Sequence record: OR352938.1
Strand: one strand, 5' to 3'
Origin: Escherichia phage AV108
DNA length: 64,000 nucleotides
In this document: one piece after another, positions 1,366 to 36,241 of the stretch
Numbering within the stretch: the first letter of the stretch is position 1
How the letters are laid out: every line of letters starts with the position of its first letter
Translations under genes and position numbers: made by a program
The notes under the pieces: model-generated
What the model saw: only the letters and a program-made list of their open reading frames with translations
What the model was told of the DNA's origin: nothing
The model's database searches: none

Positions 1366-1609
1366 TAATCCACTCCGCAATCACACATTCCATAATATTA
1401 AATGCTAACACATCTTCATCAATGTTGTAAACACTTGCCGCCTTCACTTTAACTAATGTGTCTCTGCGATCTGGCAGCATGATCACATAATCCAGTGTCG
1501 CCGGATCATATGTCATAAAGGGATCAATGTAAATCCCTTTATTCAATGCCAGATATTCGCGAAGACCTTCTATAACCCTGTGTCTAAGGTAGGTCATCGA
1601 TAGAATCAT
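1346..1609 (-). CDS. hypothetical early protein (87 aa)
   Basis: ORF track; sits between gene 47 and gene 46 as the T4 46.1/46.2 ORFs do; no recognisable motif. Confidence 0.5.
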   Translation of the reverse strand: MILSMTYLRHRVIEGLREYLALNKGIYIDPFMTYDPATLDYVIMLPDRRDTLVKVKAASVYNIDEDVLAFNIMECVIAEWINGKVKF

Positions 1610-2771: not shown

Positions 2772-3797
2772 CTAACTTTTTGCGCTATTTACTTCGGCTA
2801 AAAGTTCATCAGAAATACGCTTGACCGCCGCAAGTTCTTCCGGTTCTAGGTTTTGTTCTTCCAGATATTCATAGACCATCTGAATAGTGCTTTTAACTTC
2901 AATAACACCTGTTTCCTGTGATGCGCTACTCTCCAGCTTATGGACCACTTTTAGCTTGTGCACAACGGCCTCTAACGCGCTTTCTAACTTAGTTAACCCA
3001 TTATCAGCAACCGTTGCGATAAGACGCACACTAAGCCCCTTAAAGCGTTCTACATCGATCTTATCATCTGACGGGTAAGTGATACGCACATGATAAGTTT
3101 TGTCATTCTGGATAAACTCTTTTTTGTGTGTATCGGTATCGAATACCCAAAACCCACGCGGATCGTTTTCGTCACCCGCCGTTAGTGTGTATGGTGTACC
3201 AATATACGTTACGTTACCGCCATCGCTGATAGTATGAAAATGACCAGAAAACACTTCACGGTATTTCTTGAGAAAGTCCGCGCTATAACCTTCGGATTTT
3301 AGCCCTTTATAGAAATAGTAACCGGACAATTCCCAATGGCCTACACAATATTCGCTGAATGAGTTTTGAATAAACTCTAAAATCTCTGATTTATTGTCAT
3401 CGCAAAACCACGGAAACAGATCAAATGATACACCATCAAAGGTAACTGTTTCCGGCTTATCAATAACTTTAATACAATCATATTGGCTTAACACTTCACG
3501 CGGTGCGTTAGGCTGGATCTTGTTTCGTTTAAACATATCATGGTTCCCGACCGTGATATAACAAGTAATACCAGCCTCTTCCAGTAGCGGGATGACCTTA
3601 GTACGGTTAAATTTCATGGTTTCATGGGTAATTGCTTTTCGGCAATCAAACCAATCCCCTGTTTGAATCCATGTCTTAATATTATGCTCTTTGGAGTATT
3701 CAACCGCCTTCTTGATGGTATCAAGAATATACTCATGCACCCACGGATCATCGCCACCGATACCAGTATGCAGATCACCTAAAAGCAAAATTTTCAT
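2772..3797 (-). CDS. 47: recombination endonuclease subunit gp47 (SbcD/Mre11-like phosphoesterase)
   Basis: 341 aa; MKILLLGDLHTG..., GNHD, GHWEL, GHFHT metallophosphatase motifs; near-colinear with T4 gp47 (339 aa) as recalled. Confidence 0.9.
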   Translation of the reverse strand: MKILLLGDLHTGIGGDDPWVHEYILDTIKKAVEYSKEHNIKTWIQTGDWFDCRKAITHETMKFNRTKVIPLLEEAGITCYITVGNHDMFKRNKIQPNAPREVLSQYDCIKVIDKPETVTFDGVSFDLFPWFCDDNKSEILEFIQNSFSEYCVGHWELSGYYFYKGLKSEGYSADFLKKYREVFSGHFHTISDGGNVTYIGTPYTLTAGDENDPRGFWVFDTDTHKKEFIQNDKTYHVRITYPSDDKIDVERFKGLSVRLIATVADNGLTKLESALEAVVHKLKVVHKLESSASQETGVIEVKSTIQMVYEYLEEQNLEPEELAAVKRISDELLAEVNSAKS

Positions 3798-11059: not shown

Positions 11060-11095
11060 AAAACGAAAAAGCCGACCCTTTCGGATCGGCTAAAA
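11060..11095 (-). terminator. rho-independent terminator after nrdD
   Basis: Minus strand hairpin agccgatccgaaagggtcggct followed by ttttt. Confidence 0.6.
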
Positions 11096-21725: not shown

Positions 21726-22502
21726 TTACACGCGAGCACCGTAGATCGTGCCTACTTTATCCCAGCGAGGGGCATTGCCAGTAACAGCCTTACCAGCCGC
21801 TCCGCCATTATACTCTGTACCGTTCCCCTGAGTATTACATCTTCCTCCAGCAGCACCAACGTTACCGCCCGCACCGCCTGTATATGCACTAAGAGACCCC
21901 GAACCAACAGATCCTTTACCCGGAGCGGAAATGGAGCCAGCGGTTGCACCAGAACCCATATTAGAGGAAGACCCGGCAGCACCGAATGGGCGACCACCGC
22001 CACCACCAAATACTAGTCGACCCCTGTTACCTCCACCGCCGCCACCGCCGCCACCAGCGATAGCACCGTTATTTGTAATTCGTAGACGTGTACCGATAGC
22101 GTTATTGATTGCGTTTCCACCAGCAGCGCCAGCAGCGTTACTACCACCATTACCCCCACGTCCGTAGACAGTCACACCGGAGTTAATGATCAATGTTACA
22201 TATTCGTTTGTTAACGAGCTAGGGAAGTCAAGACAAGGAACGCCAGTAGATTGGGAAACAATATCACCCGTGATAGTAATTACTACAGGAGTAGATCCTT
22301 GTGCTTTCATCCAGTTAATAAGAGTGTCTTTATTGTAAGAGTTACTAGCACCAATGCTATAATGAATCTCTTTAGAGCGTCCGACCATTGCCGACATATA
22401 CGCCGGACGACCTAAGCGTACAGCTTGCATTGCGGCGCTCATCCACCGTTGACCAGTCTCGGACACAGCAGATGATCCTACCCATCCAGAAGATATTGCC
22501 AT
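21726..22502 (-). CDS. glycine-rich protein resembling T2/T6-type gp38 long-tail-fibre adhesin (258 aa)
   Basis: N-terminus ...GWVGSSAVSETGQRWMS...; C-terminal ~150 aa dominated by Gly-rich motifs (GRGGNGG, GGGGGGGGGN, FGGGGGRPFGAAG, GGAGGNVGAAGG) separated by short variable segments; ends ...GTIYGARV. Size and motif layout match gp38 adhesins as recalled, not searched. Confidence 0.55.
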   Translation of the reverse strand: MAISSGWVGSSAVSETGQRWMSAAMQAVRLGRPAYMSAMVGRSKEIHYSIGASNSYNKDTLINWMKAQGSTPVVITITGDIVSQSTGVPCLDFPSSLTNEYVTLIINSGVTVYGRGGNGGSNAAGAAGGNAINNAIGTRLRITNNGAIAGGGGGGGGGNRGRLVFGGGGGRPFGAAGSSSNMGSGATAGSISAPGKGSVGSGSLSAYTGGAGGNVGAAGGRCNTQGNGTEYNGGAAGKAVTGNAPRWDKVGTIYGARV

Positions 22503-24097: not shown

Positions 24098-24130
24098 AAC
24101 GAAAAAGCCACCCTTTCGGATGGCTTTTTG
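24098..24130 (-). terminator. rho-independent terminator downstream of the Dps-like gene
   Basis: Minus strand agccatccgaaagggtggct hairpin followed by ttttcgttttt. Confidence 0.6.
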
Positions 24131-24359
24131 ATTATATTTTATTCACGTCCATTTGTATAGTAGTGTTTGAATCGACCTTTGCTAAACTAGTTAAACATAG
24201 TAACCAATTCACCATCCCTTTCCAATGATAACCCTTCCTCATCTTAGACGGGTCTTCCGATTCGGTAGTAATTGAACACGCGAAAGTATGAGGAAGCCAA
24301 ATAGTTGTGTTAATGCTAGTATTCTTTTACTTCTGGTATGCATCCCACAGTGACTAACA

Positions 24360-24758
24360 TTAATCCAGTCGAGTGAGTTTATAAATTGTTTTAAAGCATA
24401 GAGCTTTGATATCGTCTAAAACGCTCTGTAACGAGCTATCAACATCATTATAAATCTCACTAGCCATTTGCGTTAACTCTTGCAAATAGGCAATTTCGCT
24501 AATCTCCTTGCGGACGACCAACTTTGGCTGATAACGACCAGTGATCCCAATATTGGTTTCAGTGAAATTATCAACCAATTCTTGCATTTCAAGATAGAAC
24601 TCTTCTAGAGCCTTATGTTTTGCATAAGATCCAGGACCAGTTACCCCAAAATGCGCAGAATGCATATAAGTAACACTCATCAGACATTCACCGATAAAGC
24701 GGTCAACTTTATTAGCCTTTCCCTCTTCGGACGTCTTTAGAAAATCACTGAATTTCAT
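24360..24758 (-). CDS. Dps-like mini-ferritin (ferritin-like four-helix-bundle protein, ~133 aa)
   Basis: ORF track 24360..24857; likely start ATG at 24758. AHF-(x11)-H-(x14)-D-(x3)-E has the same spacing as the E. coli Dps ferroxidase ligands H51/H63/D78/E82. Confidence 0.6.
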   Translation of the reverse strand: MKFSDFLKTSEEGKANKVDRFIGECLMSVTYMHSAHFGVTGPGSYAKHKALEEFYLEMQELVDNFTETNIGITGRYQPKLVVRKEISEIAYLQELTQMASEIYNDVDSSLQSVLDDIKALCFKTIYKLTRLD

Positions 24759-25047
24759 GTTCTCGATTCTCCATATTATGCAACAGAACAAATTGTTGTG
24801 CGGCATATCCCCCCATAATAAAACACTGCCTAGAATCCATACATTTACTACGAGCATACATCTTCATAATATGGGCATGAAATTTCTGGCTGGTTTCAAT
24901 GGAAGGAGATATTTTGTTTACATATACTATCATTGCGCCGTCGAAATAATCAGTAAAGTCACCAGTTGGATCATATTGATCAGCACTGACACTTCCGACC
25001 GCAGTCAAGCATATTGCCGCTGTTAGAGTTTTACGAATAAATGACAT
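24745..25047 (-). CDS. exported protein with N-terminal signal peptide (100 aa)
   Basis: MSFIRKTLTAAICLTAVGSVSA-DQ: basic N-region, hydrophobic core, AxA-like cleavage site. Confidence 0.55.
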   Translation of the reverse strand: MSFIRKTLTAAICLTAVGSVSADQYDPTGDFTDYFDGAMIVYVNKISPSIETSQKFHAHIMKMYARSKCMDSRQCFIMGGYAAQQFVLLHNMENREHEIQ

Positions 25048-35552: not shown

Positions 35553-35630
35553 AATTTGATTCTCCGTTTAAGAAAGTGTGTTTCGTTTCGATGTGTGTAT
35601 TATGCTATAGGCCGGATCTGGTGTCAACAA
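35553..35630 (-). promoter_or_regulatory. PeSL-like early promoter-leader cassette
   Basis: Minus strand GTTGACA, one GATC in spacer, tatagcataatacacac -10 region, leader cgaaacgaaacacac...cggagaatcaaattATG. Confidence 0.6.
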
Positions 35631-35657
35631 CTTTTTTTTAAAAAATTTTAGGCAATA

Positions 35658-35685
35658 AAAAAGCCACTCCGAAGAGTGGCTTATA
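35658..35685 (-). terminator. rho-independent terminator
   Basis: Minus strand gccactcttcggagtggc hairpin followed by ttttttatt. Confidence 0.6.
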
Positions 35686-35832
35686 GGGAAGGTAGCGAAT
35701 CTTCCTTGTCTCCAACCTGCTAGCGGCCTAGCAAGTTAATGCTTTAGCGTACCGGATCGCCCACATACGCTGTAATAAATGCGGCTAGGTGACGTCCAAA
35801 TCATTCTAACCGCGCTGTCTTTAGTTCACTAT
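35686..35832 (-). ncRNA. candidate small non-coding RNA (between a TATAAATA motif and a terminator; no ORF)
   Basis: ~150 nt minus-strand interval with internal hairpins (TGCTAG-gccg-CTAGCA; GGAAG..CTTCC) and no plausible ORF with an RBS; bounded by late-promoter-like TATAAATA (35833-35840) and the terminator at 35658-35685. Confidence 0.3.
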
Positions 35833-36050
35833 TATTTATATCGCTTTCTCTCGCGACGTTTTTGATCTTCTTCCTTGATAGAGTTAAATGCATCAAAAAG
35901 ACACATGACACTAATAATAAACATAACCGTATTTTCTACGATATCCCACGGCTTCGCATCAGTACAGATCCCCCAAACGGTAAGAAATGCAAATAAGGCA
36001 GAAGAGATCACAAGCAGGATACTTGCTAAGATATAAAAAGTCATTTTCAT
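35832..36050 (-). CDS. small membrane protein (72 aa)
   Basis: Two hydrophobic helices; basic C-terminal tail QKRRERKRYK. Confidence 0.45.
   Translation of the reverse strand: MKMTFYILASILLVISSALFAFLTVWGICTDAKPWDIVENTVMFIISVMCLFDAFNSIKEEDQKRRERKRYK
35833..35840 (-). promoter_or_regulatory. T4-type late promoter motif TATAAATA
   Basis: Plus-strand tatttata, i.e. TATAAATA on minus, overlapping the stop of 35832..36050 and facing the ORF-free gap. Confidence 0.35.
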
Positions 36051-36241
36051 GGTTTTACCTCAATTCTTCGATATTCATCACACATCCACGCAGTAAGCAA
36101 GAATCCCAACACATAAGCAACAAAATACGTTAATGCTTCTTCTGGTTCGGTGCTATGCGCCATCATCAGACCAGCGAGAAAGGTCTTAACAATTACATTT
36201 AAAATAATTAGCCACGCAAATAATTTCATCGTTTGCCCCAT
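36047..36241 (-). CDS. small membrane protein (64 aa)
   Basis: Two hydrophobic helices; stop/start overlap with neighbours. Confidence 0.45.
   Translation of the reverse strand: MGQTMKLFAWLIILNVIVKTFLAGLMMAHSTEPEEALTYFVAYVLGFLLTAWMCDEYRRIEVKP

Follow-up and report, generated by a model that had tools for sequence, protein, structure and literature searches.

The genome of Escherichia phage AV108 carries, on the minus strand at the end of its early dmd operon, a conserved, non-coding interval that is predicted to fold into a series of hairpins and is bounded by a T4-type late-promoter motif and an intrinsic terminator (Table 1). A phage small RNA not seen before, or a structured 3' UTR, is a plausible identity for it. 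The more specific reading that we prefer, tentatively and with doubt still slightly the stronger, is that it represents a functional structured RNA element of about 170 nt, specific to Krischvirus. Small structured phage RNAs and sRNAs embedded in 3' UTRs are a known sort of element; this one is undescribed in the searchable literature and in Rfam.

Table 1. The candidate RNA interval, its predicted parts and its borders; positions are those of the 64,000-nt window.
Feature	Position	Strand	Description
Last ORF of the early dmd / small-membrane-ORF operon	35832..36050	-	72 aa; predicted membrane protein; = RB49p118 / GEC-3S BN201_0119; stop codon adjoins interval
TATAAATA, T4-type (gp55) late-promoter motif	35833-35840	-	exact match; predicted start near 35826
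Candidate RNA interval	35683-35831	-	149 nt; stops in all six frames
Hairpin 1, GCGCGGUUAG..CCUAGCCGC	35781..35813	-	inner stem UGAU/GUCA; loop UUGGAC; two U·G pairs
Hairpin 2	35746..35771	-	7-bp stem AGCGUAU/GUACGCU; short inner stem; hypervariable loop
Hairpin 3, UU(C/A)ACUUGCUAG-GCCG-CUAGCAGG-U-UGGA	35711..35739	-	contains TTGCTAG-gccg-CTAGCAA
Linker GGAGACAA	35706..35713	-	mostly single-stranded; GGAG (RegB-type site) and GGA motifs
Hairpin 4, GGAAG-AUUCGCUAC-CUUCC	35687..35705	-	centroid fold; 9-nt loop; invariant
Intrinsic terminator, AAGCCACUC-UUCG-GAGUGGCUU + U6	35655..35682	-	stem-loop 35661-35682: 9 bp, 5 G-C pairs, UUCG loop, T6 tail; annotated terminator in GEC-3S
PeSL early sigma-70 promoter	35599..35627	-	TTGACA, 17 nt, CATAAT; near-consensus; drives next ORF 35367-35552; sets interval boundary

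Genomic setting and non-coding character

The window, that is, the whole 64,000-nt stretch analyzed, is from a Krischvirus genome (an RB49/phi1/GEC-3S-type T4-like coliphage), and the 900 bases around the interval match 58 phage records at 95-99% identity, all of them Krischvirus (RB49, phi1, GEC-3S, JSE and relatives). RB49p118 and RB49p117 flank the interval in RB49 and GEC-3S, where it is found 3' of genes 1, 57A, 57B and dmd, in the order 1, 57A, 57B ... interval ... regB, vs, tk, rI; the counterparts of genes 1, 57A, 57B, dmd, RB49p118 and RB49p117 are all on the minus strand of the window. Five small ORFs, several of them hydrophobic and membrane-like, accompany dmd in the upstream operon, whose PeSL promoters are at 37.1-37.6 kb; in T4, dmd belongs together with tifA to an anti-toxin locus (PMC10853763). 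The curated GEC-3S record has a terminator and a sigma-70 promoter annotated just 3' of the interval, and no annotation inside it.

These 3' flanking elements make up a PeSL promoter-terminator cassette, in which the terminator at 35661-35682 is the stem-loop and is separated from the promoter by an AT-rich stretch. In RB49 and phi1, such stem-loops have been shown to act as transcription terminators, and the promoters are of very high strength (Arbiol et al., 2010, PMC2839356). The terminator and downstream sigma-70 promoter that bound the interval are typical of the cassettes described in those phages (PMC2839356). The arrangement of a PeSL unit, a stem-loop and strong sigma-70 early promoter before an ORF, is found for 35599-35682 only; the repeated cassette does not extend into the 150 nt on the 5' side of the stem-loop, which occur once per genome (35687-35831 is single-copy). 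The intergenic gap is also large, at 279 nt vs. 67-114 nt for other PeSL gaps nearby, and the interval is G+C-rich relative to its surroundings (48.6% vs. 40.1% for the window, placing it at the 97th percentile). The papers on PeSL in RB49 and phi1 make no mention of the interval or of any RNA gene, and a literature search for Krischvirus RNA-seq found no paper. A second ORF-free stretch of about 230 nt, at 24129-24359, is likewise structured (z -2.9), Krischvirus-specific and in a similar kind of location.

All 58 of the 58 Krischvirus records holding the flanks contain the interval, in one copy each and at no less than 95.7% identity, so that the conservation in related phages proposed as a check by an earlier note on this DNA is borne out. 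Outside Krischvirus, blastn found matches to the terminator hairpin only, no T-even record being matched by the interval; among E. coli genomes, too, only the terminator was matched, with no host homologue found. More diverged homologues were sought with two exact-pattern scans and one protein-anchored scan of IMG/VR and one metagenome scan. The interval is also present in three metagenome/IMG-VR contigs, and the IMG/VR and metagenome scans yielded four extra loci. In the most diverged of these, identity is about 86% for the last ORF and interval together and about 94% for the interval by itself; in IMG/VR contig 3300005711_000030, the upstream ORF is 81% identical at the protein level and the interval almost unchanged.

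The interval is non-coding, given that there are several stops in every frame of both strands, that the lone ATG ORF (22 aa, 35736-35804, with no Shine-Dalgarno sequence and with its start codon inside hairpin 1) is frameshifted in relatives by 1- and 2-nt indels in hairpin 2, and that automatic ORF calls in three GenBank records are inconsistent, crossing the terminator and promoter in differing frames. The description of the interval in the earlier note as ORF-free on the minus strand thus holds, as do its placing of the start just downstream of an exact TATAAATA motif and of the end at a strong intrinsic terminator.

The same note had been unable to fold the region into a tRNA cloverleaf, and a tRNA or tRNA-like identity can be set aside on the negative ARAGORN and Rfam results: ARAGORN found no tRNA or tmRNA genes in the whole window, and there is no tRNA-clan Rfam match at E <= 10 in 35400-36100. 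Hairpin 2 bears a superficial likeness to an acceptor/T minihelix, which was rejected; its loop is hypervariable and has no T-loop consensus. With Rfam 15 there were no matches at gathering score in the window. The best sub-threshold matches, EF3314_EF3315 (25.8 bits against a gathering score of 100) and RNAI (22.9 against 47), reflect only generic hairpins and the terminator. This negative result carries limited weight, since the T4 stable RNAs rnaC and rnaD are themselves missing from Rfam.

Predicted fold, constraint and the late-promoter motif

Five hairpins, the terminator among them, are present in the minimum-free-energy fold and in the centroid fold alike. Two of them hold the inverted repeats singled out previously, TTGCTAG-gccg-CTAGCAA within 35711-35739 and GGAAG-(9 nt)-CTTCC at 35687-35705; hairpins 1 and 2 (35781-35813 and 35746-35771) are additional. 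In the consensus fold, the 5' GGA of linker GGAGACAA serves in addition to close the hairpin 3 lower stem, and the linker continues into the AGG of hairpin 4; we infer that it could bind protein. The sense strand folds at -61.3 kcal/mol (z -3.4) and the antisense strand at -54.6 (z -3.0), and the z-score is still -3.1 to -3.4 when the terminator is left out. Of 123 control tiles taken from the minus strand, only 4% have z <= -3.0, some of them inside genes, so that the interval is unusual, though it is not unique; z-scores of -3 to -6 are also found within coding regions of the window.

Across 11 aligned sequences, synonymous sites nearby are more variable than the interval, with the exception of a hot spot in hairpin 2. 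Third codon positions vary in 59% of columns in the 72-aa upstream ORF, 37% in the next ORF upstream and 14.5% in the downstream ORF, compared with 8% of columns in the 60 nt containing hairpin 1 (including a 3-column deletion in one contig) and 6.6% in the 91 nt that include hairpins 3 and 4 and the terminator. When hairpin 2 is set aside, variable columns make up about 7%, or about 5% if the MAVA deletion is left out. Hairpin 2 itself (26 nt) varies in 42% of columns, and has at least eight sequence variants plus 1-2-nt indels across 15 relatives. Divergence among these phages is mosaic, with 100-nt bins that differ by 0-27%, coding DNA included, and tracts with 0-2% difference are found in coding DNA too; some of the low variability could thus be due to recombination in the recent past, and conservation alone is not decisive.

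The pattern of stem changes was analyzed in fifteen sequences, 14 of them distinct. Pairing is kept in 99.7% of cells, and 39 of the 44 pairs never vary. There is a single compensatory change, G-C to A-U, in hairpin 2. Five one-sided stem transitions all keep pairing (A-U to G·U, G-C to G·U, and G·U to G-C or A-U); one-sided changes are seen in three stem pairs, as U-A to U·G in hairpin 1 and as A-U to G·U and G-C to G·U in hairpin 2. The hairpin 1 change, in phage Brandy, is the only variation in an otherwise invariant hairpin, while hairpin 2 carries three one-sided, pairing-keeping changes, its inner pair being G·U, G-C or A-U depending on the phage, as judged by eye. The window itself carries the lone disruptive stem change, in which a C at the hairpin 3 base has become A. 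In a shuffle control, 32 of 500 shuffles reached the observed covariation score, a marginal result.

The proposal in the earlier note of a candidate small RNA is thus upheld in part: the region is non-coding, conserved, structured by prediction and bounded by a late-type motif and a terminator, but covariation, with its one compensatory pair, is too thin to serve as proof of RNA structure, and the comparative evidence is limited by the close similarity of all known copies. On the opposite strand, the G·U-type changes would give A·C mismatches, and together with the better fold of the sense strand they favor an RNA read in the direction of the genes.

By its motif, the TATAAATA copy at 35833-35840 fits a T4-type late promoter, with initiation predicted about 6 nt downstream. 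It overlaps the Tyr-Lys-stop codons (cga TAT AAA TAA) of the 72-aa ORF 35832-36050. The gene for the late sigma factor gp55 is present in the same window. The earlier note had allowed that the motif might be a chance occurrence, and the evidence here points both ways. The motif is not enriched (4 copies in the window vs. 6.0 expected), and it is kept in all relatives except contig MAVA01000028, where a 14-nt deletion removes it along with the ORF stop codon and leaves every hairpin in place; either the promoter is dispensable or the contig is defective. On the other side, the remaining three copies (25081 minus, 43273 plus and 54086 plus) are intergenic and 25-35 nt upstream of a Shine-Dalgarno sequence and ATG, and by position are canonical late promoters, making the copy at 35833-35840 more credible as a promoter. 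With at most one copy outside a promoter context, as against the approximately six expected by chance, spurious copies are apparently avoided, and a Poisson calculation (P about 0.02) suggests such avoidance in the window.

One alternative is that the interval is a passive structured 3' UTR: the hairpins shield the dmd/membrane-ORF mRNA from 3' exonucleases, or back up termination before the PeSL promoter, no separate RNA is made, and TATAAATA is a by-product of the Tyr-Lys-stop codons. We regard this as unlikely, while giving it serious weight. The interval does lie between the last stop codon and the terminator of an operon, PeSL stem-loops are shown terminators or attenuators (PMC2839356), a comparable ORF-free structured stretch exists at 24129-24359, and the numbers for TATAAATA, together with its loss from one relative, are as this model would have them. 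However, a strong terminator hairpin is already there, the gap is longer than those at neighboring PeSL cassettes, and it is not the stems alone that are invariant in sequence, but also loops and linkers, which is more than a stabilizer needs.

Comparison with T4 stable RNAs and the T-even trailer

Under the preferred reading, as a functional RNA element, the closest precedents by position are in T4, where the segment 3' of 1-57A-57B contains, on the same strand, ipI, the tRNA genes, rnaD, rnaC and a terminator. The interval, between 57B and regB, corresponds in position and strand to this tRNA/rnaD/rnaC cluster; Krischvirus is without tRNAs. The stable RNAs C and D of T4 are expressed late and have no known function (PMC3014915, PMC9697503). 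Like the candidate as proposed, RNA C (species 1, rnaC) and RNA D (species 2, rnaD) are small (119-139 nt), structured, late, syntenic and outside Rfam. They differ in being cut from a tRNA precursor, with tRNA-like ends and a processed 3' end, whereas the Krischvirus interval has no T-arm, CCA or adjacent tRNAs and its RNA would end at a terminator. No alignment of the interval with T4 rnaC or rnaD goes beyond chance, BLAST included, and the 5' half has no similarity to either; with rnaC plus trailer as query, blastn matched no Krischvirus record. Homology to rnaC or rnaD themselves was accordingly dropped.

What follows rnaC in T4 is a different matter. Directly after it come CACUUGCC-uug-GCAGGUG GAAccccGACAAGG, then a small hairpin and then a terminator; the Krischvirus 3' half reads CACUUGCuag-gccg-cuaGCAGGuUG GA GACAAGG, then hairpin 4, then terminator. 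The T-even trailer module, as defined here from T4 70830-70907 and about 16 IMG/VR T-even contigs (in a pattern scan whose background was nine chance matches in unrelated coding DNA), has the conserved blocks CACUUGCC..GCAGGUGGAACCCCGACAAGG followed by a small hairpin and terminator. Whichever of rnaC, rnaD or a protein stop codon precedes it, it is nearly invariant; one T-even contig has it about 100 nt downstream of a tRNA gene. No description of it was found in searchable papers. The blocks CACUUGC, GCAGGU, GGA and GACAAGG occur in that order in the Krischvirus interval. The base of the hairpin 3 stem, CACUUGC/GCAGGUG, matches the T-even trailer hairpin of the tRNA region exactly, U·G pair included, and the GACAAGG of the linker is common to the T-even module; the order of parts (CACUUGC/GCAGGUG hairpin with U·G, GGA, GACAAGG, hairpin, GC-rich terminator) and the position at the end of a transcription unit are likewise the same. 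There are also differences: in Krischvirus the hairpin is longer by three base pairs and contains a bulged U, the linker is 5 nt shorter, and the second hairpin and terminator are unrelated in sequence to those of the T-even phages.

Statistical support for this resemblance is borderline. With models built from T-even sequences only, the interval was the best match in the 64-kb window for an nhmmer profile, at E = 1.2. It was also the best match in Smith-Waterman alignments with moderate gap costs, where 0-5% of shuffled windows scored as well, and was not the best with stringent gap costs. A covariance model of the whole module (R1) ranked it eighth (E = 1.2), behind other GAAA-loop terminators; this model is dominated by such terminators, and its top match was the end of nrdD with its terminator. 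A model of the hairpin and linker (R2) did not find the interval. True homology between the 3' half of the interval and the T-even trailer module is possible, if somewhat doubtful, and is to be taken as a lead, not a finding.

A further possibility is that the interval is a relic of an ancestral T4-type cluster of tRNAs and stable RNAs, its 3' half homologous to the T-even trailer, and now has scarcely any function or none. The syntenic position relative to the tRNA-rnaD-rnaC cluster of T4, the part order and U·G pair common to the T-even module, and the first rank of the interval in the window with the T-even-only profile and moderate-gap Smith-Waterman alignment would all fit. This is nonetheless improbable: the statistics, as given above, are borderline (BLAST, like R2, found nothing, and the stringent-gap alignment did not place it at the top), the 5' half is unlike rnaC or rnaD, and near-invariance would not be kept by a functionless relic while adjacent ORFs diverge by 20%.

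Another possibility is that the conserved feature acts as DNA rather than RNA, as a recombination or packaging site, an origin or a protein-binding site. The region is hyperplastic and shaped by PeSL recombination, both strands fold well, and the terminator loop has been inverted (TTCG to CGAA) in FL15, which is a DNA-level hairpin event. This reading is very improbable all the same, the interval being single-copy and outside the repeated PeSL unit, and the tolerated stem changes being of the G·U type, which pair only in the sense RNA and would be A·C mismatches on the other strand or in a cruciform. That a very small protein is encoded, by the 22-aa ORF or by the PHANOTATE-called ORFs of some genomes, is scarcely credible: although the ATG is 28 nt downstream of TATAAATA, a spacing as in real late promoters, and ORFs are annotated here in three GenBank records, the ATG lacks a Shine-Dalgarno sequence and is enclosed in hairpin 1, close relatives differ in frame through 1- and 2-nt indels in hairpin 2, and the annotated ORFs run across terminator and promoter in frames that differ between genomes.

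Possible expression and role

If the interval is a functional RNA element, as tentatively proposed, it may be made in two ways. Early in infection it would be made as the 3' end of the dmd-operon transcript from the upstream PeSL promoters; early transcription of these bases as the operon's 3' UTR, up to the PeSL terminator, we infer with confidence from the positions of promoters and terminators together with the PeSL experiments (PMC2839356). Late in infection, a species of about 170 nt would probably also be made separately, from the gp55-type TATAAATA at 35833-35840. Both transcripts would end at the PeSL terminator (35661-35682), and a discrete, stable RNA might accumulate, by analogy with T4 RNA C and RNA D from the syntenic position.

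The working parts of such an RNA would likely be its invariant unpaired segments, the hairpin 1 loop UUGGAC and the linker UUGGAGACAAGGAAG with its GGAG and GGA motifs. Segments containing GGA could bind a host or phage RNA-binding protein, or could act by short base-pairing. The U-tailed terminator would give stability and possibly a handle for Hfq; its 9-bp GC-rich stem, UUCG loop and U6 are what is looked for in Hfq-dependent, 3'-UTR-derived sRNAs, namely a Rho-independent terminator with a long U tail.

Enterobacterial sRNAs of the DapZ or MicL type are derived from 3' UTRs and share the terminator of their operon. The interval resembles them in lying between a stop codon and a Rho-independent terminator, in its U6 tail and in having a possible internal promoter that overlaps the coding end. 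It differs in that those sRNAs use a host sigma-factor promoter whereas it would use a phage late promoter.

Two more specific ideas were examined. The likeness of GAUUCGCUACCUU, in the hairpin 4 region, to ToxI GAUUUGCUACCUU, along with the dmd context, prompted a test of the interval as a pseudo-ToxI antitoxin mimic, the ToxI repeat sequence having been confirmed on pECA1039 and many E. coli plasmids. The best match, 12 of 13 nt (score 21), is beaten by five chance matches elsewhere in the window, and no tandem 36-nt ToxI-like repeats are visible in the interval by inspection; the idea was rejected. As to an antisense target, the longest complement in the 64-kb window is 12 nt, as chance predicts.

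A fuller version of the preferred reading would have the interval produce a late-expressed regulatory or decoy RNA that closes the dmd operon, has in its 3' half the counterpart of the T-even RNA module, and acts on a host RNA-binding protein or defense system. Taken as a whole this combination is speculative and rather a long shot.

RB49-type phages have no tRNA genes or annotated RNA genes, and if the interval does encode a functional RNA, it would be the first RNA gene of these phages. A conserved, single-copy candidate in the dmd operon of phages that are easily grown and used in therapy provides a tractable entry point. Should the link to the T-even trailer also be true, it would mean that a conserved element has been overlooked in T4 itself, and that the Krischvirus interval and the T-even module together may represent a conserved non-coding RNA element across the T4 superfamily.

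Sequence variation within the candidate interval

Among 15 near-identical phages, the loop and inner stem of the second hairpin (35746-35771) of the gene-free interval 35655-35831 are hypervariable, with at least eight variants and additional indels of 1-2 nt, whereas the ~150 nt around them hardly vary. This points to diversifying selection on that loop or to a loosening of its constraint. Two relatives differ elsewhere. In phage FL15, the terminator loop (equivalent to window 35670-35673) is CGAA rather than TTCG: this is an exact inversion with the stem unaltered, as is characteristic of template switching within hairpins. In the metagenome contig MAVA01000028.1, a 14-nt deletion (GATATAAATAATAG; ~3332-3345, equivalent to window 35829-35842), accompanied by a 2-nt insertion upstream, has removed both the stop codon of the 72-aa ORF and TATAAATA; the ORF there extends into the first hairpin, and every hairpin is intact.

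A trailer module in T-even phages

The covariance-model searches, built from a trailer module of the T-even tRNA region, are dominated by terminators of the window's own PeSL (promoter-terminator) cassettes with GAAA loops, because these resemble the T4 tRNA-region terminator. The module itself consists of CACUUGCC(U)UAGCAGGUGGAACCCCGACAAGG, a small GNRA/CUA hairpin and a terminator, and lies at the closing end of the tRNA/rnaD/rnaC region. Besides T4, it is carried by compared loci L021, L022, L025, L026, L029-L034 and L038-L045, and is retained alike after rnaC, after rnaD or after a protein stop codon; in one contig, a tRNA gene precedes it by ~100 nt. No description of it was found in the searchable literature, and Rfam has no family for it.

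Locations of PeSL terminators, the T-even module and a further ORF-free stretch
Feature	Location	Strand	Remarks
PeSL terminator	window 11066-11092	minus	common design AGCCxxUCCGAAAGGxxGGCUUUUU
PeSL terminator	window 24105-24128	minus	same design
PeSL terminator	window 30519-30545	minus	same design
T-even trailer module	T4 NC_000866 70830-70907 (L020 1331-1408)	minus	~75 nt; near-invariant among loci compared
Long ORF-free stretch	window 24129-24359	minus	about 230 nt; gene stop to PeSL terminator

Other structured or GC-rich regions of the window

The strongest-structured 140-nt tile of the control set (1401-1540, minus strand; -52.2 kcal/mol, z -6.3) falls within an 87-aa ORF (1346-1609). The highest local GC peak of the window (21739-22059; 57-64%, against 40%) falls within a 258-aa ORF (21726-22502), which is probably the one annotated in GEC-3S as distal long tail fiber assembly catalyst.

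The ORF-free stretch listed in the table is flanked by the stop of gene 24360-24857, the gene downstream of rI, and by one of the tabulated PeSL terminators, and contains only two short ORFs (34 and 36 aa). Its minus strand is structured (-68.4 kcal/mol, z -2.9). It is Krischvirus-specific, matched in all 58 records (over at least 80% of its length in 50) and without annotation in most, and is possibly a further RNA candidate of the type seen at 35655-35831.
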